Counted from the first letter of the stretch, positions 23,434 to 62,415 are shown. The stretch is 64,000 nt of DNA from Alloascoidea hylecoeti (GCA_001600815.1 BCKZ01000003.1:500581-564580), one strand, 5' to 3'. Program-made: numbers and translations. Notes: generated by a model not told the origin, from the sequence alone.

Positions 23434-25176
23434 TTAACATTTAGTTCTAATATAAAATACTACTTTTCTTTTAAATTTTAAAATTTGAAATAACGTATCA
23501 TCATCATCAATTATAACTATCTCATCATCTTCATCATCTTCATCTTCATCCTTAGCGCTATTACTGCTATCAATTGAATTAAATGATTTATCAGCTTTAT
23601 AACTACCAGGTAAATAAGTCAATGACACAAGGTTAGGATCTAATGATAATTTATCTGACACTTTTGAAATTAATGAGGATAATTGAATATTTGATGGGAT
23701 AATTAATGCAAATAAATCAGTTTCATAGAAAAATTTAATTTTAATGTTATTAACTTCTCCATTTCCATTTGCAATTGCATTTGAATTTAGTTGTATTTGT
23801 GTTTGTGTTTCTGATGAATCATTTATTGGACTAATTAAATCGGATTCTGAAGTATTTAATGTATCGAATGTATTTGTGGTATCTGTTCTTGTATGAGTAT
23901 TATCAACTTGGGATTTATCATTAGGGTTTGATAATCTTCCAATATTAAAATTAATACCATCATCACCAGACCCTGAATCCGTATCAGAACCATCATATTG
24001 ATATCTATTATGATCATCAGTCTTTTGAATATCAATTTCAATTTCATCATTAATAGGAAAATCTTCTTCTTCTTCATCAATCAGTTTAATTTCTTCCCAT
24101 CCAGGTCTAGTTGGTAAACGATCAGGATATTTTCCAATTTCTTCTAAATCACCATCCCAACAATTAAAAAAATTTAAAACTAATCTATTTTTTAAGATTT
24201 TTTCAACTTTTAAATTTATAATATTTGAAACATAAGTATTAAAATCTTGCATTCTTGAAATTGTTATACTATCATTTATATAAGCAACTGGACCAGGTAT
24301 AAAAGGTAAAATTCTTGGAGGACCTTTTGGTGATCCTGCTTCTTGTGGGAAAGTGTCTAATAATTTAACTTGAAAATCATAAAAATCTTGATATAATCGA
24401 CATAATTTTCTAAAATGACCATTTGATGTTTGTATAAGGACTAAAAACCAAAAAGTATCATTTGAACAGTAATATGATGGAACTGATGCTGATATAATTG
24501 GATCATTTAATGATAGGAAACGTGCTTGAGAAGTTGGAGAAGTAATTCCAGTCAAATTATTATTATTGTTACTACTATTACGATTATTAGTAGTTGAAGT
24601 AGTGAAAATTGAATTCGAAGCTGTTGAAGTAGTTTGAAGAGAAGAAGTTGAGTTATAAGACCCTCTAATATTAGTAGTAGTATTATATAATTTTGATTTT
24701 GGCTTTGGTTGTAAAGATTGAGTTTTTGAAGTAGGAAGTAAAGCAATTGAACTTGCTTGATATTTTCTATTTCTTGATTTCCATTCTTCGACAGTTGGTA
24801 TTTCAAAAGTCTTTACAGCTTCTTCAATGTTTTTTAAAACTTGACCAGTCTTTAAGTTTGTAAGTTTAACATAAGAAACAGGAACTAAACCAGGACCACC
24901 TAATCTTTCAATTGGTTTTGCGATAAACCAATCAAAATTATGATGCGCACATATTATTAAATTTTCATTTGGATGAACAGCTAACTCATCAGGTTTTTCC
25001 GGTACAAAATCATATAAGACGTGTGCATGTAAAGCACCAGATCTACCCCCGGGAGCAACACTGGCACCGGCTCCAAAGCCGGAAATAGATGGTGAAGATG
25101 GAGTTGGGGGAGGTTTACCCGTGCTGTTTGGAGATGAATGTCTTTTTTCTCGTAGCGAACGTCGGAAGCTTTTCAT
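23434..25176 (-). CDS. BEM1: Bem1-like polarity scaffold, paralog B (basic N-terminus-SH3b-CI-PX-PB1; no SH3a)
   Basis: MKSFRRSLREK N-terminus; SH3b VLYDFVPEKPDEL...ICAHHNFDWFIAKPIERLGGPGLVPVSYV; CI IPTVEEWKSRNRKYQASSIAL; PX LCRLYQDFYDFQVKLLDTFPQEAG..RILPFIPGPV; PB1 IKIKFFYETDLFAL. Confidence 0.92.
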   Translation of the reverse strand: MKSFRRSLREKRHSSPNSTGKPPPTPSSPSISGFGAGASVAPGGRSGALHAHVLYDFVPEKPDELAVHPNENLIICAHHNFDWFIAKPIERLGGPGLVPVSYVKLTNLKTGQVLKNIEEAVKTFEIPTVEEWKSRNRKYQASSIALLPTSKTQSLQPKPKSKLYNTTTNIRGSYNSTSSLQTTSTASNSIFTTSTTNNRNSSNNNNNLTGITSPTSQARFLSLNDPIISASVPSYYCSNDTFWFLVLIQTSNGHFRKLCRLYQDFYDFQVKLLDTFPQEAGSPKGPPRILPFIPGPVAYINDSITISRMQDFNTYVSNIINLKVEKILKNRLVLNFFNCWDGDLEEIGKYPDRLPTRPGWEEIKLIDEEEEDFPINDEIEIDIQKTDDHNRYQYDGSDTDSGSGDDGINFNIGRLSNPNDKSQVDNTHTRTDTTNTFDTLNTSESDLISPINDSSETQTQIQLNSNAIANGNGEVNNIKIKFFYETDLFALIIPSNIQLSSLISKVSDKLSLDPNLVSLTYLPGSYKADKSFNSIDSSNSAKDEDEDDEDDEIVIIDDDDTLFQILKFKRKVVFYIRTKC

Positions 25177-31165: not shown

Positions 31166-31948
31166 ATGGCCAGCATAGCTTCTATATTTGATTTAACAGG
31201 AAAAGTGGCGTTATTCACAGGTTCTTCTAGAGGAATTGGTGCTGCAATGGCTTTAGCTCTTGCTAGAGCTGGTGCCGATTTAATTTTAGTTCAAAGATCC
31301 CAAGCTAAAACAGATACTTATGAAAAAATTAAAGCATTAGGTAGAAAAGTTTTCATTGTTAATGCCGAATTGAGTAACAGAGAGCAGGTATCGAAAATCG
31401 TTCCAAAAGCAATTGAATTATCACCAACTGGTCAAATTGATATTCTAGTTAATAATGCAGGAGTTGCAAGAAATGCAGAACTTTCAGAATATCCTTTGAA
31501 ATATTGGGATGAGTCTCTTGAAGTTAATCTTACCACACCTTTTATTTTATCAAAAGCTGTTGGAACTCATCAAATTGAAAAAGGTATTAAAGGTAAAATT
31601 ATAAATGTAGGATCTGTTTGGGGAATATCTGGTGGGGTTCAAGTTGTTGGATATGCAGCTGCAAAAGCAGCATTAATTCACCTTACAAAATCGATTTCAA
31701 ATGAATGGGCAGGTAAAGGAATAAATGTTAATTGTATTGCACCTGGACTTATTGAGACTGATATGAGTGCACCATTAATTAGTGGTGAAAAAAAAGACAT
31801 TGGTGCTATCATCACAGCATCAATACCAAAGGGTAGAGTTGGACAACCAGAAGATTTTGATGGGATTATTTTATTCTTAGCAAGTGGTGCCTGCGATTTT
31901 GTTACAGGATTGACTATTATTGTTGATGGTGGTAGGATTTATATGTAA
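31166..31948 (+). CDS. Short-chain dehydrogenase, fungal KduD/2-deoxy-D-gluconate 3-dehydrogenase-like
   Basis: TGSSRGIG, NNAG, YAAAK, SNEWAGKGINVNCIAPG, IVDGG; first ATG at 31166. Confidence 0.88.
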   Translation: MASIASIFDLTGKVALFTGSSRGIGAAMALALARAGADLILVQRSQAKTDTYEKIKALGRKVFIVNAELSNREQVSKIVPKAIELSPTGQIDILVNNAGVARNAELSEYPLKYWDESLEVNLTTPFILSKAVGTHQIEKGIKGKIINVGSVWGISGGVQVVGYAAAKAALIHLTKSISNEWAGKGINVNCIAPGLIETDMSAPLISGEKKDIGAIITASIPKGRVGQPEDFDGIILFLASGACDFVTGLTIIVDGGRIYM

Positions 31949-34662: not shown

Positions 34663-37600
34663 ATGACAGCAGTTGCATCTGTTTCAGGATCCGGTGCTCC
34701 ATCAGGTGCCTCAGGTTCTCTGGGATCTCTAGGGTCCATAGGGACTTGGGACTCACTAGGTTCATCGAAAACATCGGCCACCTTTCAAAAACCAGCTACT
34801 GCTTTACTGAGTGAACTTTTAGAAGCTGCAAGAAATTTACCAAGTGCAAGTTCTGATCTTGGTACTTTACAACTAGGATTGATTGATATTAAAAAAAGAG
34901 CCCATGATTTACGTGGTAAAGGTACTTCAAAAACAGATACAAAAGCGTATGTTTATCATCATTAATTAAAAAGTTAAATTTAATTAAATATTGAATAAAT
35001 AACTAATTTTTTTCTTTCTTTTTTTATATTATAGACATTATCTACTTGCCGGAAGTGGGATTAATGCAGAAGAAATTGAACATGATATTCGATCAATTGA
35101 CGTTCATCAGATTTTAGAACCATCAACAACAAATGATTTCACTGATATTGATGTAAGTGAAAAAGTAATCAAGATAACAAAAATATATTTATTTTATTTA
35201 CTAATAATCATTTTTAGAGTTATTTAAGATCCAAAAAGGAAGAAAATATACTTGCTTCAATTGAAGGTTCACTTAGAAGTGCTGCAAAAGATTTTGATGT
35301 TTTTGTAAATAAAGGTGTTAATATTGATTGGAGAGCAAAAAGAGATGATATTCGTCGTTCATTTGGTATAATTTCTGGTAAAACAAGACCAGATATAAAT
35401 AATAATAACGGAATACGATCTTCTACACAATCAAAAGAAATCAGTTATTCAAAAAATATTTCAAATAAATGGGGTAAATCTTCATTGGGTAGAAATGTTC
35501 TTGGTCCATTAACTGGTGGTGGAGAATTTACAGATATTGAAACACCAATAGTAACATCAAATCTCACAACTTCATCATCATCTTCTTCAACTCCAGCACA
35601 AACAACGACGACGACAACAACAAATTCTGTATTAGGATCTAAAAGTAATGCTCAATTTATAAAACAAAAATTTGAAAAATTTGCAAATGTTGTTATTAAT
35701 CTTAATGATACGAGATTACAAGGTAAATTTTTTCCAATTTGTTCACAATTTGCAACAATTTCAGATTCTTTTGGTTCAGATACAAGGAGTCAACAAATTT
35801 ATGATTCATGGCAAATATTATCAAATATAATTGATGAATATAATTATAAAGGTCCAACGTTAGAAAGAAATTTTTCAAAAGATTATTATTTATCAATAAA
35901 TGATATAAATAATTCAGAATCAATTAAATTAAGAAAACAAATTGTTCAAGGTAGTAGACAATTTCTTGAAGATCAATTTTTTGCACTTGTTGAAACTGAA
36001 ATTTCAAAATTTCCACAAGATGCTCAATTAGGTGGTATACCATCAGTTTCAAATAAAATTAGAGCATATTTAAATTTAAAATTTTCAAAAGATGAAAATT
36101 TTAAATCTTTTAATTTAGAAATTGTTAATAATGATCCTGTTTGGGCAATTATTTATTATATGATTAGATCTGGTTATTTAGAAGAAGCTTTAGAATATAC
36201 ACAATCAATTGAAGGAATTTTTAAAAAAGTTGAAAGATCTTTCCCAACTTATTTAAAAGAATATGTTGCTTCAACTGAAAGAAGATTACCAAGAGAATTA
36301 TTAGAAAGATTACATACTGAATTTAATCAACATATTAGATTTATTGATGAAAAATCAGATCCATATAAATATGCACTTTATAAAATCATTGGTCGTTGTG
36401 AATTATCAAGAAAAACAATTCCAGGAATTTTAAATACCGTTGAAGATTGGTTATGGGCACATTTAGTTTTAACAAGAGAAGGAAATTTAGTTGGTGAACC
36501 AATGCAAGAAAGATATAGTTTAATTGATGTACAAAGAATGATTGTACAATTTGGTGCAAAACATTTTAATCCAACTGGTTCAAATCCTGGTATGTATTTT
36601 CAAGTATTATTATTATCTGGTTTATTTGAATGGGCTGTACACTATATTTATTCATTTAGTGAGATTGATGGTGTTCATTTCTCAATTGTTTTGGCTTATT
36701 TTGGTTTATTAAGAGTATCACATACAGCTGCTAAAATTGGTGAAACTGATTTAATTACTTTAAATCAAAATGAACAACCTGAATTAAATTTTGCAAGAAT
36801 GATTGGTTATTATACAAGAGATTTTAGAAAATCTGATCCAAAAATTGCTGTTGATTATCTTATATTAATTGCATTAAATGGTGATTTACCAAATGGTGTT
36901 GGTGAAGAACAATTAGAATTATGTCATGAAGCAATTAGAGAATTAGTTTTAGAAACTAGAGAATTCTCAAGATTAATAGGTAATATTAAAGCAGATGGTT
37001 CAAGAGTACCAGGTGCAATTGAAGAAAGAATGAGACTCATTAATTTGGAAGATGAAGAAGATTATTTACATGTTATAACACAAGAAGCAGCAAGACGTGC
37101 AAATGAAGATGGTAGAAGAGCAGATGCAATCTTATTATATCAACTTTCTGAAGAATATGATGTTGTTATTTCAATTATTAATAAATCACTTGGTGAAATA
37201 TTAAGTATTACTGAATTAGATAAACCATTGGCTACTTTACCATCAGGAGCTTCATTATCAATAAGTGCTTCAGAAGATCCTGCACAATTAGCAAGAAATA
37301 TGCTTTCAGTTTATACAGCGAATGTTGGTATGTTAAAACAAGTAAGTCAAAGAAATCGAGAAACTTGTCAATTACTTTTATCAATTGTGGAAGCAAAAGA
37401 ATATTTTGTAGCTCAAAAATGGGATGAAAGTTTACAAAAATTATTACAATTAAATATTATACCAATAGATCCAAGACTTGATTTAGGATTCGTTAGACGG
37501 AAAGCACAACAATTTGGTTCATTACATGAAAGTATTGCAAGAAATGTACCTGGATTATTGGTTATGGCAATGACATGTGTCTCACAACTTTCATTTGGTT

Positions 37601-37755
37601 TAAGAAGAAGTGAATATATTGCTTCAAGTCGTGTTGATAAATTAACAAGTTTAAAAGAAATGGCAAAAAATTGTATGATTTATGCGGGTATGGTTCAATA
37701 TAGAATGCCTAGAGAAACATATAGTATTTTGATTAGTTTAGAATCATCATTGTGA
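34663..37755 (+). CDS. NIC96: Nucleoporin Nic96; exons 34663-34946, 35035-35152, 35218-37755
   Basis: Introns GTATGT..TAG and GTAAGT..TAG rebuild DTKAHYLLAGSG and TDIDSYLRSKKEENIL; DPYKYALYKIIGRCEL, TVEDWLW, YAGMVQYRMPRETY. Confidence 0.95.
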
Positions 37756-39775: not shown

Positions 39776-42712
39776 TTAAAATTGAATTTCCCAATCCTCA
39801 CTAATAATAGGAGAAGGATTACGAACAATAAAAACATCACTTTCAGTACTCTTTTCTTTTAATATTTGTGATGTCCAATTTTTTGAACCTTGAGAAACTT
39901 TAGCTTCAATTCCAAAAGTATTTTTATTACCACCAATAATGATTATTTTTTCAATTGTCAAAATCTTCCCAATATTTGAAACATAATCACCAAAACCGGA
40001 TTTATTTGTATTAATTGAAGTTAATTTATTTAATTTACTATCAAATTTAAATTCAACATGAATAAAATCACCGGATTTAAAGTTAAATGATTTACCATCA
40101 TCAAGGTATAAATCACCAAATGCATTACCATCTTTTGAACTTAAAACAATAACTAATGTAAAAGGATCATATTTCATTGTTTCAATTGATCTTCTATATC
40201 TATCTCTTCTTGAAATAATATGTCCACCTTCAAGTAAAATTGGGATTTTTTCTAATGGTGCTTCAATTTTATGATATCCTTTACCATTATATTTTTTATA
40301 ATTAAAATAATCATAATATGATTCATCATCCTGTGGTAAATAAATATTAACAGATGAACCACCTTCTTCAATAACAGGTTTAACTAGAATTCCTTTATCA
40401 GTGAAATAAAATTCATCTTCAATTTCGTATGTTTCTTCATTATTAGGATGATGATAAAATAATGGTCTCATTATTGGACTTCCATCAACATTGCTATGAT
40501 GAAAAGAAGTATATAAAGTTGGCATCAATGAATATCTTAATCTAACTGCATCTCTCATAATTGAGGTGTATGGTTCACCAGCAATCCATGGTTCACGACG
40601 ACGTGAATCAATATGAGCATGAGCTCTAAAAAATGGATAAAATATACCAGTTTGATACCATCTTGTTAATAATTCTTTTGATGGATCACCAAAAAATCCA
40701 CCAACATCAGAACCGGCAAATGGATAACCACTAATACCTTGATTTAAAACCATTGGAATTGATAATTTAAGATATTCCCATTTTGACATATTATCACCTG
40801 TCCACATTGCTGAAGTTCTTTGTGATCCAGAAAAGAAACTTCTTGTCAAAACAAAAGATCTTGAATTACTATTATCATTAAATCTTTCAATTAATGCATC
40901 ATTTGTAGCTTCATGAAATGTCATTCCATATAAATTGTGAACGGATCTATCTTCCCAATTACCAAAATAAATTGCATCTTTTTCAATTGTTGTTTCTGGT
41001 CCACTAAAAACAGATGGTTCATTCATATCATTCCATAAAAATAAATTTTTTGCATCTGAATTAAATTTTGATCCATATTTAAATAGTGTTTTCCAATATA
41101 ATTTTGATTTTGGATTTAATGTATCAATCCAAATTGATTCACCTGGCCAACAATGACCATGATAAGAAATACCTTTATTATTACAAATTGATAATTTATT
41201 ATCTTCAACATATTTTGAAACTTCATAATTAACTTTTAAATGTGGATCAATAATTGCAACTAAATTTCTTTTTGTTTTATTTAACATTGATAACATTTTT
41301 GAATAATTTGGAAAAGTTTCTGGACCCCATGTAAAATATTTTTTTTCATCAGTATATTCAATATCAAGCCAAATTGTATCATAAGGAAATTTAAATTCAT
41401 CCATTTTTTTATGAACAGTTAAAACATCATCTTCGTTATTATAATTCCAACGACATTGATGATAGCCAAGAGAAAATTCTCTTGGTAATGCTGTTGTTCC
41501 AGTTAATGAAGTATATGATTTTAAAATTGATGCTGGATCTGGACCTAACATTATAACAACATCAATAATACCATTTTCAGAAATCCAATGAGATTGAGTA
41601 TTTGAATTTGATTTAGTTATATCGATCCAAGTATCAGCACTATTTATCCAAAATATACCAATACTTGAACCAGGTTTATGAGATTGTAAAAATGGAATTG
41701 AACCATACATTGGCATCCAACTATCAACTTCATATTCAAATATATCAACATTCATTAATCGGTAAGGGTCATTATGATTACCTTCACCACCTTTTGTTTC
41801 TCTTAAAGATAATTTATCAGCATGTTGAGGTATACCATAAGCATGCTTATAATCAATAAAAGAAAAATCTAAACCAATTGATTCAGGACCTAAAGGAATT
41901 GTATCTTTATTTGAATCTTTAAATTCATCTTTCCACATTCCATCGGAAATTTCAAAATCACTTAAATTAATATCATTTTTTTCATCATCTTCATTAGAAG
42001 GTTGCTTTCTCCAATGTTCAACATTTAATAAACCTCTATCGTTTAAAATTAATTGAGTAATTCCATTAGTTTTAAATTCAACTTTAAAAGGATTAATGTA
42101 AACAATTGCTTCATTAATAAAATTTGGACCATAAGTTATTGTAAAAAAACCATGTTCGTTGATTAATTCTAAATTTAAACCATTAATTTTGAAATTTTTA
42201 TCAAGTTTTTTAGCAGCATGGATATCACTATCATCAAAGGCCCATTTTGCAGCTTCATTATATCTAAATTTAGAAATGATTTTATTTTCACCTCTTAATT
42301 CAAGAGCTGGATCAAGACGCTTCTTTTCATCAATTTTCAATCTAACATTATTGTTGATTAAAAAACTTAATTGAAATGGTAAATCAATTGGAGTTGAAAT
42401 TACTTCAGAATTATTGGTTCTGAGAATTGATTTTTGAATTATACCAGAAATTACTCCATCATTGTTAATTTTTAATGAAGATGGATCGATTTTATAAGGG
42501 CTTGACCAGTTTGGACCAAATTCGTTAATTTTGTTGGCATAATGACGGTTTCTCTTGCAAAAGCCAGATTGATCACAAGTTTTGAACAAGTAAGACTTAA
42601 CGGCAGAAGCAGGAGCTGGTAGCAACACCAGAAGAACCAGCAACGTCAATGGCAGCAGGGATTTCAACGAGCAACACCAACTCTTATTTCGGTTGTGAAG
42701 ATGGAGGCCCAT
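39776..42712 (-). CDS. ROT2: Glucosidase II alpha subunit (GH31)
   Basis: Signal peptide, FKTCDQSGFCKRNR, catalytic WNDMNEPSVF, WTGDN, FFRAHAHIDSRRREPW. Confidence 0.97.
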   Translation of the reverse strand: MGLHLHNRNKSWCCSLKSLLPLTLLVLLVLLPAPASAVKSYLFKTCDQSGFCKRNRHYANKINEFGPNWSSPYKIDPSSLKINNDGVISGIIQKSILRTNNSEVISTPIDLPFQLSFLINNNVRLKIDEKKRLDPALELRGENKIISKFRYNEAAKWAFDDSDIHAAKKLDKNFKINGLNLELINEHGFFTITYGPNFINEAIVYINPFKVEFKTNGITQLILNDRGLLNVEHWRKQPSNEDDEKNDINLSDFEISDGMWKDEFKDSNKDTIPLGPESIGLDFSFIDYKHAYGIPQHADKLSLRETKGGEGNHNDPYRLMNVDIFEYEVDSWMPMYGSIPFLQSHKPGSSIGIFWINSADTWIDITKSNSNTQSHWISENGIIDVVIMLGPDPASILKSYTSLTGTTALPREFSLGYHQCRWNYNNEDDVLTVHKKMDEFKFPYDTIWLDIEYTDEKKYFTWGPETFPNYSKMLSMLNKTKRNLVAIIDPHLKVNYEVSKYVEDNKLSICNNKGISYHGHCWPGESIWIDTLNPKSKLYWKTLFKYGSKFNSDAKNLFLWNDMNEPSVFSGPETTIEKDAIYFGNWEDRSVHNLYGMTFHEATNDALIERFNDNSNSRSFVLTRSFFSGSQRTSAMWTGDNMSKWEYLKLSIPMVLNQGISGYPFAGSDVGGFFGDPSKELLTRWYQTGIFYPFFRAHAHIDSRRREPWIAGEPYTSIMRDAVRLRYSLMPTLYTSFHHSNVDGSPIMRPLFYHHPNNEETYEIEDEFYFTDKGILVKPVIEEGGSSVNIYLPQDDESYYDYFNYKKYNGKGYHKIEAPLEKIPILLEGGHIISRRDRYRRSIETMKYDPFTLVIVLSSKDGNAFGDLYLDDGKSFNFKSGDFIHVEFKFDSKLNKLTSINTNKSGFGDYVSNIGKILTIEKIIIIGGNKNTFGIEAKVSQGSKNWTSQILKEKSTESDVFIVRNPSPIISEDWEIQF

Positions 42713-42936
42713 TTTTAGAGGAGTTGGAGATGGTCAAGTGGAGGGAGTGGTGTATCTGTCTGAATACGGCCGGCCGGACATAAACATTTGTTCAAACAAC
42801 ATTTATTATAAAATAATCTTATTGACACCTCTACAAGAACAAATAATAACATAGATAATTATATTAACCATGTGGCCTTTTATAATTATAAAGTCTCCTT
42901 CTTTCGCCCCTCAGATTTTCGTAGATCACAATTCCA

Positions 42937-45900
42937 ATGTCTTCTGCTGTTAATCCAACCTTCAAATTCCCTGTCGAGGGACGTTTAGTGGTGATATATG
43001 GCATAACTCACGACCCTCTCGTTACAGCATTTGCTAAACTTTTATATTCAAAAGGTGCCAATATAATCCTGGTTGGCCCAAATGAATCAAACCTGCTAAA
43101 ATCAATAAATAACATAAAAGACGTTGAAAGGAAAGATCAGGTTTTGAAACACATAGTGGCAGACTTATCAACAACGGGCGTTTCAAACAGCATCTTCTGT
43201 AATATTCCTGATGTTGATATTGCTATCTTTACAACTGAAACAAATCCGACGCCATGTTTATTAAAAGATTTAAACTCAACTGATATTGAGTCAAATATTG
43301 AATCTCAATATTTATCCTATCAAAATTTTTCAAAATCTGTTTTCCATTGTATGGCTTCAAATTTAAACGTTTCTAATGATATTCCAAAACATATATTATT
43401 TATCTCGTCTTCTTTGGCTTTCTATTCTCCTATTGGGTATAGTCAATATTCTCCTTTATATTCAAGCTTGAAATCATTTACTGATATTCTAAGAGTTGAA
43501 TGTTCTCCTTATAATATTAAAGTTGAGTGTATATATCCAGGTCTTTTAAATCATAATACTACTGGCGAACAAAAAATCTTTAGAAGTCGATTACCTTTAA
43601 GTAATATTTTTAATAATAATAATTCAAAATATTTAACATATGATGAAGCATCAATATTAATTTTAAAAAAATTAAATAAAGGTAGAGAACAAATAACAAT
43701 TGATTTTTTATCATGGATTTTAAGTTGTTTAACAATTTCTTCAAGTCCAAGAGAATTTAGTTTTTTACAATCATTTATTTCATTTTGGTTTATTTTATTT
43801 TTACCAATTATTAAAAATTCAATAAATAATGATTTAAAATTTTATTGGGAATCACATAAAGAGAATTTAAATATTAAATCGATTAATGAATTATGTGATG
43901 AAGATGAAAATGAAATGTTACAAGTACAATTACATGAATCACTAATATCAGATTTAGATAAATTGAAAATTTTAAAACCAATTGTTGAAATTTCAAGAGT
44001 TGATAATGAAGAGGTTGAAAATAAAGTATTAGAAGGATCTGAAGAATCTTCAACAAAAATTTTAAATTTTAATTATTCCCCACAGAAGATAAATGATGGT
44101 CGTGGTATTGATAATAGTCCATTAACACCTGTCAAAGCTTTAGTTTTAGATTCAAAGTCAACTCCAATTCCAATTCCAATTAATATTAATGCTCAAGTGC
44201 TTGAGGTTCCTAAACCATATGACGATGTTCCTAGAACATTACCGAATATTAATACTACTGAAATCATTTCGAATTCTAGAAATATTAATAATAGTGATAA
44301 TAAAACCGAAGAATCAATCTCAATTGGTCCTGACGAACAAGAAGCATTACTTTCTGATAGTACACAATTTCAAAATGAAATAAATGTTGAAAAATCTAGT
44401 ACTTCAATCAATAACGATGAACATGATGATGTTTGTTCACCACTTGTTACAAAATTATCTTCTGATATTGATAGATTTATTGATAAAATAAATAACTCAA
44501 CACTTGATGATAATAACGATGATAATGATGATGCCTCATCTGAAGCTTCATGGCCTGAAGAAGAGGAATTACCACATGAAATTTCAAACCCATTAATTGA
44601 AGTTTCAAAAGAATCACTTCAAGAAAATGATATGAGTATTCCATACACAACTATTTTACATCCTAATGAATATAAAACTCGTAAACAGCAATGGAATTCT
44701 GATAGAGATTTATTTTTAGATACTGGAGAAGATTTAAAAGAAGTAGCAGAATTCCCTGCTGTCAAAGCAGAATATTTAACAGAAATCGAGGATTCTTCTA
44801 ATTTGGTTAACACAGTTGATGATGAGCCTATTGAAAATTCAATAGTAGATAATGAACAATATATTGAACCGCAAGTTAATTTATTAGAGCAAGAATCCAC
44901 TACAATTGATAATACTAATGATATTCAAGAACCATTAACAGTATTTCCACAAAAACTTACTGATAATGATTCATCAGAGGATGAATCAATCCATGAAAAA
45001 TCATGCTCTAAATCTACTTCATTATCAGATATTGATGACGAATATCAAAGTGATGTTGCAATTGAAAAATATGATATACCTTATGATCATAATTATTCAA
45101 CTAATGAACCTCAATTGGAAGAAGAAATTAATGAAAATTATGAAAATTATGAAGAACCACCTCTTTTACCTTTACCTTTACCTTTACCCTTAAATGATCC
45201 AATTACAAATGATAATATTCCAATTGTAACTGGTGATGAAAAATTAAATGAATTTTCACCTTCTTGGAACGATGTTAATTATTCTCCAGTTGAAGAATCT
45301 AGTAAAGAAGTTTCTCATGATGAAGAACAAGATATTGATCCTCAGTTTAATCCTAATCCTTCGGTTGTTATAAATACAGATTTAGATTCAACAGATGAAC
45401 CATTACCTCCCCCTCCTCCACGGAAACCATCTATTGGTTATCCGAACCCTTTCAAGAATCAATCAGTGAAAAACAGACTTCTTTCTCATTATCAAGAATC
45501 AAGGGCATCAAGTACTAGTACTAATAATGAGGATCCAATTTCTGTAACAAATATTCGACATTTGGAAGAAATGTCTAAAGTTGATAATACTATAGATGAT
45601 CATAAAGATATTAGCACTAATAGTTTACTCCCAGCTACTATAACTTCTACTGATAATATTTCCCCTATTACTACAGGTACCGATGTTCCATTAAGTTTAG
45701 AAAGTGATAATTCAAATGATCATGAAGTTAAAAAGGCTTTTTTTCAACAAGAGTATGAAATTGATAATCCTTATGCTGATGAAGCACCAACTACTGATTT
45801 AAATAATGAAGAAGTGATGAATGAAGAAACAACAAAAGAGCCTACATTTTCTTTTGACGTGAATAATGATGACGAAATAGTTATTGATGATAATCATGTT

Positions 45901-47340
45901 GAATCATTAGATATAAATGAGTTTGAGGATAATAAAGAAAAAAAATTACTTGTTCCTACTCTTTCTATTCATCCTGCAACAAGTTGGTATGATGATAGTG
46001 ATAATGAAAATAATGATTCTAAACATAAAGATGATGATGAAATTGAAAACGAATTCTCCCATACACATGATAAAGCAATCGATCATGACTTTTCAGATCA
46101 TAGTGATGATAACATTGATGATTATAATAAATTTAAGCTTAAAGATAATTATGAAGTTGAAAATGAATTTTCTCTTATGGATGATGAACAATCAGTTGAT
46201 GATAGTTTTTCAAATAGTGGTGATCATGATGAGGATGATGAAGAAGTTAATAATACTTCAAACTTAGAAGATGAAATCAATATGAGTACTATAACCCAGG
46301 ATGAAGATGAAGATGAAGATGAAGATGAAGATGATAGTAGTGATGATGATAAAGAAGATCATATTGAAGCTTTACCAATTTCCAAGATTTATTCTAGAGA
46401 ATATCTTAATGATCTCAATCAAACATTAGAGAATATTAAAAGATTTAATTCTCCAAATATGAAGCAGGATAATTTTATAAATAAGGAAGAAGATCTAAAA
46501 AGATCTTTTGATGATGACGATGATGACGATGATGATGATGATTTGAAAAGATCTTCTAATAATAATGATAATACTAGTACTTCAAAATTACCCATTGATA
46601 ACTATATCAATACCTTAAGACAAAAATCAAGAATTAAAAGACCAAAAAGAAATACTTTAAAGAATGTTAATGATACTACTGCTAATGTTGGTACAATTAG
46701 TGGAGTCAAAGAAGATACACATACTGGAACTAGTAATCATGATCAAGAAACTAATGAAGGAGATGATTCTTCCAGTGATAAATTCAGGCCTAAACAGTTT
46801 GATTTTTCCTCACAAGGACCACAAATGGCATCTTCTGTTCCTATGATGCAAGAATTAAAACAATTTTTTAAGAAAAAGGAAGTATTAACAACAGAAAATA
46901 ATAATACAAATCTTCTTAAACCTAATTCAAGAGATCCAAATTTAAAGAAATCATTTGAAAAGTTAGTTAATGAAAAAGAAACAGAAATTGAAGATTTTAA
47001 CCCAGTTAAAGGTGTTAGAAATGAAATAAATGAAAGAAATAAAAGAGATTTAGGAAGTGATAATGATTCTAATCATAGTGTTGAAGAAGATAGATTTGTT
47101 TTTGAAGAACCATGGACACCATCACCACCTCATTATTTTTCAAAAAATGATAATGATTCAATTACAAGTAGTGGATCAGAATCAAATAATGATGTTGCAT
47201 TTGAATCAGAATTTGTTAGAGAACCTATAACACCAAAGTCTCCAATTACAATTACAAGGGCAGCAGCATTAAAATCAGCAGCATTAAAGACCAAACAAAC
47301 ACCTACAGAAAAAAACATCTCATATATTATAACTAGTTGA
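42937..47340 (+). CDS. Tsc10/KDSR-like degenerate SDR domain fused to a ~1150-aa acidic low-complexity tail
   Basis: N-terminal FKFPVEGRLVVIYG, ILFISSSLAFYSPIGYSQYSPLYSSLKSFTDILRVECSPYNIKVECIYPG and hydrophobic IDFLSWIL...FWFILFLPII follow the Tsc10 layout; the ORF is uninterrupted for 1467 codons. Confidence 0.8.
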   Translation: MSSAVNPTFKFPVEGRLVVIYGITHDPLVTAFAKLLYSKGANIILVGPNESNLLKSINNIKDVERKDQVLKHIVADLSTTGVSNSIFCNIPDVDIAIFTTETNPTPCLLKDLNSTDIESNIESQYLSYQNFSKSVFHCMASNLNVSNDIPKHILFISSSLAFYSPIGYSQYSPLYSSLKSFTDILRVECSPYNIKVECIYPGLLNHNTTGEQKIFRSRLPLSNIFNNNNSKYLTYDEASILILKKLNKGREQITIDFLSWILSCLTISSSPREFSFLQSFISFWFILFLPIIKNSINNDLKFYWESHKENLNIKSINELCDEDENEMLQVQLHESLISDLDKLKILKPIVEISRVDNEEVENKVLEGSEESSTKILNFNYSPQKINDGRGIDNSPLTPVKALVLDSKSTPIPIPININAQVLEVPKPYDDVPRTLPNINTTEIISNSRNINNSDNKTEESISIGPDEQEALLSDSTQFQNEINVEKSSTSINNDEHDDVCSPLVTKLSSDIDRFIDKINNSTLDDNNDDNDDASSEASWPEEEELPHEISNPLIEVSKESLQENDMSIPYTTILHPNEYKTRKQQWNSDRDLFLDTGEDLKEVAEFPAVKAEYLTEIEDSSNLVNTVDDEPIENSIVDNEQYIEPQVNLLEQESTTIDNTNDIQEPLTVFPQKLTDNDSSEDESIHEKSCSKSTSLSDIDDEYQSDVAIEKYDIPYDHNYSTNEPQLEEEINENYENYEEPPLLPLPLPLPLNDPITNDNIPIVTGDEKLNEFSPSWNDVNYSPVEESSKEVSHDEEQDIDPQFNPNPSVVINTDLDSTDEPLPPPPPRKPSIGYPNPFKNQSVKNRLLSHYQESRASSTSTNNEDPISVTNIRHLEEMSKVDNTIDDHKDISTNSLLPATITSTDNISPITTGTDVPLSLESDNSNDHEVKKAFFQQEYEIDNPYADEAPTTDLNNEEVMNEETTKEPTFSFDVNNDDEIVIDDNHVESLDINEFEDNKEKKLLVPTLSIHPATSWYDDSDNENNDSKHKDDDEIENEFSHTHDKAIDHDFSDHSDDNIDDYNKFKLKDNYEVENEFSLMDDEQSVDDSFSNSGDHDEDDEEVNNTSNLEDEINMSTITQDEDEDEDEDEDDSSDDDKEDHIEALPISKIYSREYLNDLNQTLENIKRFNSPNMKQDNFINKEEDLKRSFDDDDDDDDDDDLKRSSNNNDNTSTSKLPIDNYINTLRQKSRIKRPKRNTLKNVNDTTANVGTISGVKEDTHTGTSNHDQETNEGDDSSSDKFRPKQFDFSSQGPQMASSVPMMQELKQFFKKKEVLTTENNNTNLLKPNSRDPNLKKSFEKLVNEKETEIEDFNPVKGVRNEINERNKRDLGSDNDSNHSVEEDRFVFEEPWTPSPPHYFSKNDNDSITSSGSESNNDVAFESEFVREPITPKSPITITRAAALKSAALKTKQTPTEKNISYIITS

Positions 47341-47767: not shown

Positions 47768-48924
47768 TTAATTTAAAGATAATTCATAGCTGGTTCTTGA
47801 TCCATAAACTTCACCATTTTTAAGTGTAACACTATTTTTAATATTTGGATCATCACTATTAATTGCATTGATAAAACTACCAGATTCTAAACAAAATCCA
47901 GCTCTTTTACCATGTTTACCAGTATCAACAAAATCACCGGTATAGAATTGGAAAGCAGGTTGAGTAGATGATGCTTTTAAAGTTAATTGTTTATATGATG
48001 CTTCAGCAAATGTAACCAATTTCTTTGATCTACTATCAAGTGAATGTTTGACACCATCCAATACAAAACAATTATCAAATTGTGGGTCTGTTTCTCCAAG
48101 CTCAAAAGTAGTATCTTTGATAGATCCAAATTTACCAGTTGGATGATTATTTGAATCACAATCCATATATTTATTTGTGTGCAATTTGATTAATGTACCA
48201 GTAATATTTTTTCTATTGTCAATTCCTCCAAGAATAAAGTAAGAATGGTTTGTCATTGAAATAGCGGCAGGAACAGAATCATGATTCCTAACTTCATAAT
48301 CAATATGCAATGCTGAACCTTTCTTATCATTATCAACAAACCAATAATAAACATTCACATCCAAAGAACCTGGAAATCCACTACCATTTTCATTAGTATC
48401 AGTATAATTTAAAATTTGAAACCTATATTTAGTTAAATTATCTTGAGAAACTGCAACAGGACCATCAAAATTAACTGTATTAAAACCATTTTTACCACCA
48501 TGTAATACTGAATGTGAACCTTCTTCATTTAATTTGACTTGATAAACTTTTCCATTAATATTAAATTTACCAAATGGAATTCTATTTGCATATGGACCGA
48601 TTGTTGCACCGAAATAAGGGTTTGAATTTGCCTTATAACCTTCTAATGAGTTATGACCATTTACAACATTAATCCATTTACCATTAATTTTGATTTCGAA
48701 TTTAACAATTGTTGCACCACGACTTATAAAACTTGCTCTTACATTACCATTATTCGAGGTTAAAGTATAAAGCTTAACACTATCTCCTTCACCAAAATTT
48801 GAAACCGTTAAATGTGAACTATATGAACAAATAATTATAATTAAAAGTTAATAACCATTTGAACAAAATAATTATTAATTTATAGTTAATTGTAGAAACT
48901 TAATTAAGCTTACACTCCAGCCAT
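47768..48924 (-). CDS. Stand-alone aldose 1-epimerase (galactose mutarotase); exons 48924-48914, 48818-47768
   Basis: Frame extends upstream of the listed ORF: NPYFGATIGPYANRI, LHGG, GFPG, TNHSYF, FQFYTG, GFCLE; intron 48819-48913 GTAAGC..TAG. Confidence 0.92.
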
Positions 48925-52383: not shown

Positions 52384-55200
52384 CTAGAGAGTTTTAATGA
52401 GATAAAGTCCAGTATCCTGAGAATCTCTAATGCTTTTAAAAATGTCTGATGTAAATGATGTTGAAATCTAAATCACAATAGTTAGTAACAACACTCTTCA
52501 AAAAAGTTTTATTTTAAAAAATAATAATAAACTTACTCCATGGTTTTCACCCCAAATTTCAAGAGTTTTTTGTTGTTCTAAATATCTTGAATTTGATTGA
52601 TTTTTTAATTTTTGAGCTTCATTATTGATAAATTCAGTTATTTCATTAGATTGATTTTTTAATTTTAAAATACTTGATGAATGAGGTTTATATTGGTTTT
52701 TTCCAGCAATTAATGATAAACAATAAGAATGAATTATATTTGAAATCTAAAATTTTCATTTGTTAGTTTCTCTTTTTTTTTAAAAAAAAAAGTTTTAAAT
52801 AATTATCATACCTCCAAAATACTATATAACCAATGAAAATCTTTATAAGAAAATAAACCAGAAGGTTTGTTTGGAAGTGAATCAATTGAAACAATAGATA
52901 ATAAATTTTTATAACTTTTTGCAGTTCCTTTTGATAAAGAAGATTTACCAAGTTCTAAAATTATTTTACAAGACCAAATTTCTTCCAAAGTTAATTCATT
53001 TAATAAATCATTTTCATTTTTATCATTAAATAATTCAATTTCTAAAATTTTTAAATTTAATTTAAATTCTTCAATTTTATTTGATGATATAATTAATAAA
53101 TTATTAATAATTTCATTACAAATTGAAAAAATTTTAATCCATTTTGATTTTGGTATTGGACCAATTGTTAAATTTGAATTTGTTGCTAAATTTGTATCAG
53201 CACAATCCCAAATAATTTTAAAATCTCTATTATCTTCCCATGTTTCATCATTTGGTGTTTGAGATAAATCACCATTAATTTTAAATTTAATACCATTTAA
53301 TCTTGAAATTCTAACATTTTCGATATTTAATAATTTTCTTTGAATACTATATTCAATCCTTTCACCAAATTTAAAAAAACCTTCAATTTGACAATAAGAT
53401 TCTTTTTCAAATGATTTTTTTAAAAAATAATTAAATTCATCATCTTGTTGAGAATAATGATAAATTAAATTATTTAATTTAATTTGTTGTTGTTTAATTG
53501 GCATTAAAGTTGAAATTCTTTGAAATAAATGATTTGATAATAAATCATTTTGGATATTTTTAATTGATAATGATTCATAATTTTTTGAACTATTTTTAAA
53601 TGAACCAATCAATAAATATAATTTAATTAACCAAATTTTTACATAAAATTGATGTTTATCTTTTAAAGATACAAATTCAAGTAAAATAATACATTTTAAA
53701 ATTGAATCAATTGAAAACTTTGTTAAATTATTATTAATTAATATTGAATTAATTGATAATAAAATAAATTCATCACCTGGATGATAATCAGTTTCTTCTT
53801 TTTGAATTAATAAATGTTTTGATTTATTATAAAAACTAATTGATTCTGAAATAAATGATTCTGATATAATTGATGATTTTGATTCAATTAATAAAAATTT
53901 AAATTTTTGAAGATTAACTAATTGAATTAATTGAGAATAATTAATTTTTGAAAAATCTAAATCATTAAAATATAATTGTTTAACTTTAATATAATCATTG
54001 ATAAATTCTTCTTTATTAAAATCAACTTTGGTGATATAATGTTTTAAATCTTCAAAAGCAACTAATTTATTATCAAAAATTTCTAAATATTTTTCAATTG
54101 ATTGAAAAATAGTTAATGGAATTAAATCTGTTTTTTTAATATTTTTTAAATTCATTGTTAATTCAATATTTGCTAATAAAGAATTTCTTGAAATTTTATA
54201 ATTTTTAATTAAATTAAAAACTTTTAAAAATTTTAAATCATCATTTAATTTAATTGATGATTTAACTAATTGTTTCCAACGATTCCAATCATCATTAATA
54301 TTCAAAATATTTTCATTATATTCAAATAATTGTAACCAATTTTCATCTAATTCTAAAGATTCACAAACAATTAATTGTAATTCTAAATCTTCTTTTACTG
54401 TTTGATTATCATTATTTGAATTATTATTCAATTCATTAAAATCTTTAACTGTTTTAAATATTTCATTATATCTTTTTAAAAATTTTAAAAGTTCAATTTC
54501 AATAAAAATTTCTTGTGAATTTTTTAAAGGTTTTAAAGATTGTATTAATTTTAAACCTAATAATGGGAATAATTTTATTTCTAAATTTGATAAATTTGAA
54601 TATGATAATTTTAAAGCAATTAAACAACATAAAGAAACCCATATCTTATAATTTCTTTTATTAAAATTATCATTTAATAATTTTGAGGATTTTTGTAATC
54701 CTGAATAATTGAAAATTTTAGCATTTTCCCAAAATAATCTAATGGTAAAGAATTCATTTTTAGGGAATCTTTTTGATAGATTTTCATAAAGTGAAATAGC
54801 CTCGGAATCTGTAAATATAATAAATAAATAAAATTAGGATATTAATAACATAACATAATATATATGAGACTCATCTAACCTTTTCCTAATTTCCTTAACA
54901 GATCAGCTAATAGATCAACAGTTTTGAAATCGGTTGGACCTGAGTCAGCAGCCTTTTTAATCAAGTTATAAGTTTCTTCTCTACCTTGATGGTAAGCTAA
55001 ATAAGCATCCAAAGCCTAAGATAGTCAATATTTATATTTCATCATACAGGAGAAATAACACATACATGGAAAAAGACATCGTTGGGATATTTCTTCAGCT
55101 GTTTTGCGATCAATTGATGAGCATGTTTGAAAGTCCTTGAATTGATTGAATCAAAAACCGCTCTTTCTTTGATGGTTAAAGAAGAATCTGATTGATTCAT
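52384..55200 (-). CDS. MDM20: NatB auxiliary subunit Mdm20/Naa25; exons 55200-55066, 55015-54880, 54808-52812, 52746-52537, 52467-52384
   Basis: TPR-like N-terminus (VFDSINSRTFKHAHQLIAKQLKKYP), KIWLIKLYLLIG...YESLSIKNIQND, DNRDF; four phase-consistent introns; neighbour of BRX1 as in S. cerevisiae. Confidence 0.88.
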
Positions 55201-61469: not shown

Positions 61470-62415
61470 ATGTCTTCATTATACAAAGCCCTATCGGCTG
61501 GAAAATCAAAACCAGACCAAAAAGAACACAAGTCGAAGAATAAACAGAGAGTTCTTATAATAACATCAAGAGGTGTTAACTATAGACATCGTCATCTCAT
61601 TAGTGATTTATCATCAATGATGCCTCATGGTCGTAAAGAATCAAAAATTGATTCAAAATCAAAATTATATCAATTAAATGAAATTGCAGAACTTTATAAT
61701 TGTAATAATGTTTTATATTTTGAAGCTAGAAAACATATGGATTTATATATGTGGTTAAGTAAAGCACCAAATGGTCCAACTGCTAAATTTCATGTTCAAA
61801 ATATGCATACTTTAGAAGAATTAAATTTTACTGGAAATTGTTTAAAAGGTTCAAGACCAATTTTATCTTTTGATAAAAGTTTTGAAGATGCTGCTCATAC
61901 TAAATTAATTAAAGAGATGTTTATTCAGGTATGTTCATCCATTATTATTATTATCTTCATTTTCTAAATCACTAACTAAATTTTTTTAGACTTTTGGTGT
62001 TCCTCCTCTAGCACGAAAATCAAAACCATTCATCGATCATGTCATGACATTTAGTATAGTTGATGGAAAAGTTTGGGTTAGAAATTATCAAATCACAGAA
62101 TCTATTAAACAAAAAGAAGCAAATGAATTAGGTGATGAATCTACTAAAAAAGGTGATGAATATGAAACAACATTAGTTGAAATTGGTCCAAGATTTGTTA
62201 TGACTTTAATTACTGTTTTAGAGGGCTCATTTGGTGGTCCAGTTATTTATGAAAATAGAGAATTTGTTTCTCCAAATTTCGTTAGAGCTCAATTAAAAGC
62301 ATCAGAAGCAAAAGAAGCAAAAGGTAGATCTGATGCTGCTATTGCAAGAAAGATTAAAAAGAGAGAATCTGTTCTTGCTGCTGATCCATTAGCTGATAAT
62401 ATCTTATTTAGATAG
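61470..62415 (+). CDS. BRX1: Ribosome biogenesis protein Brx1; exons 61470-61928, 61990-62415
   Basis: NKQRVLIITSRGVNYRHRHL, LNEIAELYNCNN, FTGNCLKGSRP, EIGPRFVMT; intron GTATGT..TAG. Confidence 0.97.

Follow-up and report, generated by a model that had tools for sequence, protein, structure and literature searches.

The window analyzed here is the whole stretch of 64,000 nucleotides from the low-GC budding yeast Alloascoidea hylecoeti (29.3% GC). On its plus strand lies a long gene whose product, as judged from its sequence, is an unusual Tsc10 protein: a homologue of the 3-ketodihydrosphingosine reductase (KDSR) that fails the defining motifs of the enzyme, carries a 1157-residue acidic tail and has an architecture found in this species only. 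The reading that we favor, and consider rather likely, is that the protein is a catalytically dead Tsc10 derivative that would have been reused as an endoplasmic reticulum (ER) or lipid droplet anchor for a cytosolic, disordered tail. The main parts of the gene are as follows.

42937..47340, plus strand: whole gene, 1467 codons and a stop codon, no intron predicted
42937..43704, plus strand: degenerate Tsc10/KDSR-type short-chain dehydrogenase/reductase (SDR, Rossmann) domain, residues 1–256 (Pfam adh_short, AlphaFold2, Foldseek)
43705..43815, plus strand: hydrophobic hairpin anchor, residues 257–293, consisting of FLSWILSCLTISS, an SPR turn and FSFLQSFISFWFILFLPII (Tsc10 alignment, hydropathy, AlphaFold2)
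43867..47337, plus strand: acidic low-complexity tail, residues 311–1467 (composition, absence of a family match, AlphaFold2)

The reading frame

The frame of 1467 codons is the longest stop-free run in the window. It contains no stop, compared with 50 to 326 stops in the other five frames, and the natural logarithm of the probability of such a run, calculated from the gene's own base composition, is -132. A stop is present in the same frame four codons 5' of the ATG. Neither the 5' splice-site words GTATGT, GTAAGT and GTACGT nor the branch word CTAAC were found on the gene's strand within 42937–47340. The gene is thus real and intact. There are only two CTG codons, at residue 45 (43069–43071) and residue 53 (43093–43095), both at conserved hydrophobic positions, and for this reason the reading of the gene does not depend on how CUG is decoded. 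L53 is an invariant leucine in the Tsc10 alignments, a weak hint that CUG is decoded as leucine in A. hylecoeti. One metatranscriptome (X7) contributed two low-complexity pieces of 31 letters on the stretch, which have no bearing on expression.

Homology of the head to Tsc10

The amino-terminal 310 residues, referred to as the head, are by sequence comparison and structure prediction a Tsc10 homologue with a classical SDR fold. Across all of these ~310 residues the nearest sequence is that of Tsc10p/KDSR (FVT1; EC 1.1.1.102; 8jat), which resembles the head in its SDR fold, catalytic Ser and Tyr, SPR turn and carboxyl-terminal hydrophobic hairpin. The best match among seven sequences of the PDB was Cryptococcus Tsc10 (8jat, E 1.9e-7, 34 bits). 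A phmmer search against 1.84 billion representative proteins gave 221 proteins with E values of 1e-3 or lower, 26 of them at or below 1e-10 and five at or below 1e-30. The first match, P0002, is the protein's own copy from another assembly. The next five (E 1.1e-33 to 9.3e-30, 29–30% identity, residues 10–313) include clusters named 3-ketodihydrosphingosine reductase TSC10 from Meyerozyma, Lipomyces, Sugiyamaella and Yarrowia, and the Tsc10s of Tortispora, Martiniozyma and Pneumocystis were among the further matches. The Atlas clusters nearest to the head consisted without exception of 3-dehydrosphinganine reductases (score 0.95). In maximum-likelihood trees, one with 42 rows and one with 19, the head was placed inside the budding-yeast Tsc10 clade, with Shimodaira-Hasegawa-like approximate likelihood ratio (SH-aLRT) support of 99 and 98, respectively, and with no resolved sister in either tree. 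The original prediction, made from the DNA sequence, that the first ~300 residues follow Tsc10 therefore agrees with the phmmer search, the 8jat match, the Atlas and the trees.

Profile and structure pointed the same way. Residues 30–209 matched Pfam adh_short (E 5.8e-11, 42.7 bits), and AlphaFold2, supplied with a 41-row alignment, predicted an SDR fold for the head with a predicted local distance difference test score (pLDDT) of 87.6 and a predicted template modeling score (pTM) of 0.87. A Foldseek search with the head returned at least 500 SDR matches with classical SDRs on top (best TMq 0.64 and TMt 0.77). Three other assignments were tried and rejected: of the 64 weak matches to NCBIfam SDR models none amounted to a family assignment (highest score 34.4 bits, cut-off 238), while Pfam DUF1776 (20.8 bits, cut-off 25) and Pfam adh_short_C2 (16.8 bits, cut-off 27) remained under their thresholds.

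Loss of cofactor-binding and catalytic residues

Conservation was counted in a 41-row alignment of the head and 40 Tsc10/KDSR relatives, and the motifs were also read against 11 proteins. The altered sites are listed here.

42994..43023, plus strand: degenerate glycine-rich cofactor loop, residues 20–29, IYGITHDPLV (S24T, G26D and G29V against 40 of 40 relatives; P27 inserted; G22 kept)
43078..43080, plus strand: R48P, the Arg after strand beta-2 (R in 39 of 40 relatives)
43228..43242, plus strand: FTTET, residues 98–102, replacing the F/I-C-C-A-G (NAG-type) motif (A101E, A in 38 of 40; G102T, G in 40 of 40)
43306..43308, plus strand: N124Q, the Asn of the SDR tetrad (N in 34 of 40 relatives)
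43405..43461, plus strand: active-site stretch, residues 157–175 (Ser157/158 and Tyr171 kept; K175Y, reading YSPLY)

The head is changed at 13 of the 26 columns that are common to at least 36 of the 40 relatives, whereas those relatives themselves are changed at a median of one and a maximum of three. It is the sole departing row at S24, G26, G29, G102, K175 and A177, where the 40 others agree, and it departs also at R48, A101, E214, K218, P219, E226 and A239, where 37 to 39 of the 40 agree. The KTKPEIT..IEG block of Tsc10 is replaced. Residues G22, S158, G167, Y171 and E188, along with other fold positions, are kept. S158 and Y171 are invariant in the family; the Lys and the Ala that are replaced in K175Y and A177S are present in 40 of 40 relatives.

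The motifs had been read in the original prediction as IYGITHDPL, FTTET and YSPLY, and these readings were exact in both alignments, the first being extended here by a Val. The losses go further than these three motifs, since the tetrad Asn, the KTKPEIT..IEG block and the Arg after beta-2 are gone as well, and replacements at cofactor-binding and catalytic positions are far more frequent than in any of the 40 relatives. In place of the TGxxxGxG-type NADPH-binding loop the head has GITHDPLV, with G26D, G29V and the inserted Pro, and of the Ser-Tyr-Lys triad (plus Asn) it has Ser158 and Tyr171, with Tyr at Lys175 and Gln at Asn124. In SDRs the glycines of the nucleotide loop contact the pyrophosphate and the Lys is indispensable; replacing the Lys or the loop glycines abolishes activity. 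The Arg after strand beta-2 presumably binds the 2'-phosphate of NADPH. Because the loop glycines, the beta-2 Arg, the tetrad Asn and the YxxxK Lys are lost, the head most likely neither binds NADPH nor reduces 3-ketodihydrosphingosine. The enzyme fold is kept in the AlphaFold2 model and half of the conserved columns are changed, the combination that marks a pseudoenzyme. Set against Tsc10/KDSR, in which the glycine loop, Arg48, the A-G of CCAG, Asn124, Lys175 and the KTKPEIT..IEG block are all in place, the sequence of the head makes NADPH-dependent reduction very unlikely and activity is not expected.

The possibility was considered that this gene is the organism's only TSC10 and still encodes a functional 3-ketodihydrosphingosine reductase whose cofactor site is unorthodox and whose tail is specific to the lineage. 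The head does belong to the budding-yeast Tsc10 clade, where no sister is resolved, and neither its overall fold and hairpin nor Ser158 and Tyr171 have been lost. No second TSC10 was found in the 64-kb window. A metagenome scan with the Tsc10 alignment gave 107 matched stretches, 43 relatives and 40 loci; its peptide pattern needs the Lys that the head does not have, so that the gene's own locus is unrecoverable by it and the scan is uninformative rather than evidence of absence. The four best loci (E 3e-45 to 6e-38) have 36–42% GC compared with 29% in the window, and on this account they are not assignable to A. hylecoeti. Furthermore, active-looking Tsc10s with low-complexity extensions of ~50–120 residues do exist (P0026 and P0041, described below). 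Nevertheless, a sole, working enzyme is very improbable: G26D, G29V, R48P, G102T and K175Y fall where 39 or 40 of the 40 family members agree, and the extended P0026 and P0041 retain all of those motifs. A review, moreover, describes all four characterized KDSRs as having the TGxxxGxG motif together with the Ser/Tyr/Lys triad (PMC6148460). Since the head is read as a pseudoenzyme, a separate active 3-ketodihydrosphingosine reductase would be expected elsewhere in the genome.

The acidic tail

Several features were located in the tail.

45157..45192, plus strand: PPLLPLPLPLPL, residues 741–752, a polymorphic hexanucleotide repeat (Tandem Repeats Finder, TTTACC x4.7 at 45165–45192; one PL unit fewer in P0002)
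45400..45429, plus strand: PLPPPPPRKP, residues 822–831, a candidate ligand motif that fits the class II SH3-ligand consensus PxxPx[KR]
46300..46335, plus strand: (DE)n run, residues 1122–1133 (Tandem Repeats Finder, GATGAA x5.8; short-read contigs break at 46293–46359)
46510..46542, plus strand: D11 run, residues 1192–1202 (composition, Tandem Repeats Finder)
46618..46662, plus strand: basic patch RQKSRIKRPKRNTLK, residues 1228–1242 (charge map, in the less acidic last ~270 residues)

A D/E/N/S-rich tail of ~1150 residues had been predicted, and the tail of 1157 residues indeed contains 12.3% D, 11.2% E, 10.7% S and 10.6% N. D and E together account for 23.5%, and the 272 acidic residues compared with 101 K and R give a net charge of -171. 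The three thirds of the tail matched no Pfam family (best E 0.097), and an Atlas search with the tail gave no usable match. When the tail was modeled by AlphaFold2 as a single sequence without an alignment, the mean pLDDT was 34, with 1130 of the 1157 residues below 50 and only two short helices (residues 505–520 and 1154–1170). Going by this model, the tail is probably intrinsically disordered. The GC content at the three codon positions of the tail is 0.453, 0.302 and 0.111, the last of which resembles the 0.124 of the ROT2-like gene next to it. Tandem Repeats Finder detected repeats of microsatellite scale only and none the size of a domain.

The SH3-ligand-like motifs of the original prediction are present as PLPPPPPRKP and PPLLPLPLPLPL. 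PxxPx[KR] occurs three times in the tail compared with 0.45 expected, a number reached by 13 of 1000 shuffles, and runs of four prolines occur twice compared with 0.01 expected from shuffles. CK2-type sites and N-x-S/T sequons were not enriched in the tail over shuffles. The charge map rises to +6 in residues 1221–1240 and to +4 in residues 1441–1460. From its sequence, the patch RQKSRIKRPKRNTLK might be read as similar to a nuclear localization signal or as lipid-binding.

Two proteins with SH3 and PX domains are encoded elsewhere in the window, both on the minus strand: one with two SH3 domains (8854–11595), which from its domain order we take to be Bem1-like, and one with a single SH3 domain (23434–25176). 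There is nothing to link either protein with the tail's PxxP motifs.

Continuity of the head and tail

A separate concern was that the head and tail derive from different genes, brought together by a mistake in the assembly or fused because a sequencing error had erased a stop. Every word sampled from the stretch was present in four DNA runs from three studies. In the runs X1, X2 and X4, which represent the three studies, a single contig covers 42500–46292 with no differences and no gaps, crossing the head-tail junction (~43815–43870) and about 2.4 kb of the tail; the assembly itself may derive from some of these runs, which are to that extent not fully independent. The assembly join that the original prediction had named among its refutations is thus contradicted by continuous, identical contigs. 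P0002, a 1448-residue protein called on a 14.5-kb contig from a different assembly, differs only in its called start and in lacking one PL unit, and the variation between assemblies within the gene, the hexanucleotide-repeat polymorphism, is in-frame only. Right after the hairpin, moreover, NNDLKFYW still aligns with the RDVxxYF of the family at the Tsc10 carboxyl terminus.

The short-read contigs do break inside the tail, at 46293–46359, but the break coincides with the GATGAA repeat and the contigs resume at 46360. In addition, two contig joints skip ~3 kb of the gene, 43674 to 46636 in X4 and 43843 to 46941 in X1 and X2. Their sides are only 21–22 letters long and lie in sequence of 80–93% A+T. 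Joints of this kind often come from repeats, and these two are regarded as probable low-complexity misplacements. With single contigs from three runs crossing the junction without a difference and the same protein recovered from an independent assembly, an artifact of either kind is exceedingly improbable.

The membrane anchor and the probable side of the tail

The carboxyl-terminal hydrophobic anchor of Tsc10, claimed earlier to be retained, was recovered by alignment, hydropathy and model. The alignment with the Tsc10 carboxyl terminus shows, in order, a first hydrophobic helix, the SPR turn, a second hydrophobic helix and NNDLKFYW. AlphaFold2 places helices at residues 257–264 and 275–306. 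The Kyte-Doolittle mean over 19 residues is 1.99 at residues 274–292, the sole segment above the strict hydropathy threshold. In S. cerevisiae, the carboxyl-terminal hairpin of Tsc10 is reported to be experimentally validated and the protein to be found in the ER and on lipid droplets (PMC9123286, PMC12687448, PMC4076087); Tsc10 is also described as a GET3 (GET-pathway) client (PMC9123286). Given the conservation of this hairpin region, the tail would by analogy most likely come out on the cytosolic side.

If the anchor instead were a single membrane span, the tail would lie in the ER lumen, where it could act as a low-affinity, high-capacity cation (Ca2+) buffer or as a heavily N-glycosylated domain. 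The single segment above the hydropathy threshold could be read in this way, as could the 23.5% D and E, the D11 and (DE)6 runs and the 23 N-x-S/T sequons. Tsc10 helices are, moreover, thought to be capable of a transmembrane as well as a monotopic conformation, according to one report (PMC9123286). However, the alignment with Tsc10 extends over the entire hairpin region, with the first hydrophobic helix and the SPR turn both represented, and the same report gives the hairpin as experimentally validated in S. cerevisiae (PMC9123286). The sequons number 23 compared with 19.8 in shuffles, 240 of 1000 shuffles reaching 23, and the SH3-type proline motifs and the basic patch would be meaningful only in the cytosol. 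A lumenal tail is therefore very improbable, and a cytosolic one is assumed in what follows.

Divergence specific to this gene

The end branch of the head measures 2.46 compared with a median of 1.03 in the 42-row tree, and 2.52 compared with a median of 0.76 in the 19-row tree, about 2.5–3 times longer than the branches of its relatives. Its adh_short score of 42.7 bits compares with 93–114 bits for six canonical Tsc10s, and its score of 34 bits against 8jat with 118.8 bits for the canonical P0004. Other genes in the window are not decayed. A generic SDR 11 kb away (31166–31948) has TGSSRGIG, NNAG and YAAAK intact and scores 178 bits, and the ROT2-like neighbor matches Chaetomium glucosidase II over its full length with 966 bits. 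The decay is thus specific to the Tsc10-like gene.

Such divergence could mean that the gene has no function and is the relic of a TSC10 that was duplicated or replaced, decays neutrally, has lost its stop and runs in frame into downstream sequence. Half of the conserved positions of the family are gone, the branch is very long, and relatives of the same architecture are absent from the collections searched. The tail is of low complexity with microsatellite-like repeats, one of them polymorphic, and the gene is known from DNA alone. However, a neutral, stop-free read-through of 1157 codons at 29% GC is next to impossible, with 40 to 289 stops in the tail's other frames. The positions that determine the fold, the hairpin and the open frame have been kept despite long divergence, the variation between assemblies respects the frame, and the GC content of the tail by codon position resembles that of a real gene. 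A relic is therefore unlikely, though it deserves more weight than the other alternatives set out above, and a protein with a dead head and a role of its own remains the preferred reading.

Distribution of the architecture

A word-indexed search with the whole protein gave one match, the protein itself, among 7999 candidates. The head alone likewise gave only itself among 4500 proteins of 806–2568 residues and no match among 6051 proteins of 30–805 residues; searches of this kind overlook relatives at ~30% identity that have no five-residue words in common, as the phmmer search demonstrated. Among the 150 phmmer matches listed, only P0002 is longer than 541 residues. A Tsc10 has ~300–370 residues and no further domain, and is typically of about 320 residues, whereas the present protein has 1467. 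In the literature searched, with subscription-only papers outside the search, no Tsc10/KDSR pseudoenzyme, inactive paralogue or disordered carboxyl-terminal extension was described. The earlier statement that the architecture is undescribed accordingly stands, with nothing similar in the protein collections or the searched literature.

The closest approach is provided by two unnamed yeast Tsc10s that also have N/S-rich low-complexity extensions. P0026 (455 residues) has ~110 residues of N/S-rich extension at the amino terminus. P0041 (509 residues) has ~50 residues at the amino terminus, an internal insert and ~110 residues after the hairpin, and the Tsc10 carboxyl terminus therefore tolerates additions. 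In contrast to the present protein, both keep GGSQGLG and YAPxK, and their extensions, roughly one-tenth the length of its tail, are not strongly acidic.

Another composite protein, P0009 (472 residues, from a contig of 2360 bases in a public run), joins an Mpo1-like domain (PF06127, E 6e-18, residues 10–142) to a complete, canonical Tsc10 (adh_short, E 4e-30, residues 177–374). Mpo1 acts in phytosphingosine breakdown. P0009 is either a genuine fusion protein that combines two sphingolipid enzymes or the result of the gene caller running neighboring genes together.

A proposed role

The gene descends from TSC10. In the mechanism that we propose, the head, unable to bind NADPH or to reduce 3-ketodihydrosphingosine, would be a pseudoenzyme. 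The dead head could then serve as a module for targeting to the membrane of the ER or lipid droplet, possibly oligomerizing or binding lipid. The acidic tail with its proline motifs, beginning right after the hairpin, would extend into the cytosol as a long, disordered scaffold. Finally, the dead head may pair with active Tsc10, a step that is conceivable because Tsc10 is multimeric. A review gives S. cerevisiae Tsc10 as an essential, multimeric protein of 320 residues (PMC6148460), and another source describes Cryptococcus Tsc10 as a dimer in the crystal (PMC12942302).

A more specific proposal is doubtful. The dead head might recognize active Tsc10, as a heteromer, or the long-chain-base substrate, and might tune or sense the flux through step two or, by means of the PxxP motifs and the basic carboxyl-terminal patches, connect it with SH3-domain or plasma-membrane partners. 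In the same pathway, Lcb1 stands beside Lcb2 in serine palmitoyltransferase as a dead paralogue that partners an active enzyme. If the dead head pairs with Tsc10, it would be a "prozyme" or tether for step two, as Lcb1 is for step one. The trypanosomatid AdoMetDC and DHS prozymes are likewise described as dead paralogues partnering an active enzyme (PMC5201418, PMC3663545). As in these systems, the fold has outlasted the catalytic residues and the parent enzyme forms oligomers, which makes a heteromer with the active copy conceivable. Unlike the present protein, the prozymes and Lcb1 carry no giant disordered tail, and the partner here is only postulated.

Two further systems offer partial parallels. 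ER proteins of the Ist2 type have a long, disordered cytosolic linker that ends in a basic, lipid-binding stretch. Like them, the present protein has an ER anchor followed by a very long region predicted to be disordered, with basic patches in the last ~270 residues; unlike them, it has an enzyme-derived, monotopic hairpin anchor and an overwhelmingly acidic tail, and there is no homology. An Ist2-like tether function, suggested by this analogy, would be pure speculation. NmrA-like regulators are atypical, non-catalytic proteins of the SDR fold that usually keep the glycine motif of the nucleotide loop and lose the Tyr. They resemble the head in the non-redox use of an SDR fold, but in the head it is the Tyr that is kept and the nucleotide loop that is lost, and there is no specific sequence relationship.

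In addition to the lack of an assignable second TSC10, the two skipping joints and the possible common source of the runs, several points weigh against a dead head that anchors a cytosolic tail. Retention of Ser158 and Tyr171 may allow some chemistry or ligand binding, and AlphaFold2 drew on aligned canonical enzymes for its confident model of the head. The amino-acid make-up of the head row is marked as unusual by the tree tool, and the long branch may be partly compositional. The hairpin topology has been demonstrated experimentally for S. cerevisiae Tsc10 only, and a single-span anchor would put the tail on the lumenal side. In the protein collections searched, no relative with both head and tail was found other than the protein's own copy P0002, and the gene is known from its DNA sequence.

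Step two of sphingolipid synthesis, catalyzed by Tsc10/KDSR, is usually viewed as unregulated housekeeping by a single essential enzyme. If the reading proposed here is true, the gene would illustrate how an ER lipid enzyme can be converted in nature into a module for membrane targeting and, if the head is paired with the active enzyme, its product would regulate long-chain-base synthesis. The protein would also provide a test case for how the Tsc10 hairpin, reported to be a GET client in S. cerevisiae (PMC9123286), behaves away from the carboxyl terminus. At present, with one species only, it is a well-documented curiosity rather than a mechanism.

Neighboring genes

The gene content of the window is fungal, including glucosidase II alpha (ROT2-like), Nic96, mitochondrial S9, a NatB subunit, the SH3-PX proteins and an FCH-DEP-RhoGAP protein. 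The genes flanking the Tsc10-like gene are as follows.

39776–42712, minus strand: ROT2-like gene, divergent from the Tsc10-like gene and 224 bp from it
47768–48847, minus strand: aldose-1-epimerase-like frame, convergent with the Tsc10-like gene

The 224-bp divergent promoter region between the ROT2-like and Tsc10-like genes is A+T-rich except for a short G+C-rich stretch at 42716–42780 (ggaggagttggagatggtcaagtggagggagtggtg...ggccggccgg). The aldose-1-epimerase-like frame is open for 359 codons, with its first ATG ~197 codons in; the open reading frame (ORF) from ATG to stop is 162 residues long and matches Pfam positions 156–298 of 299. The frame is not visibly broken and likely has either a short first exon set apart by a 5' intron or a start codon other than ATG. 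Three other ORFs also cover their Pfam profiles in part: Nic96 (36160–37755, plus strand) matches positions 113–606 of 607, NatB/Mdm20 (52806–54155, minus strand) positions 71–379 of 379, and Brix (61470–61967, plus strand) positions 1–121 of 193. Judged by sequence, this partial coverage suggests introns, frameshifts or missed exons.

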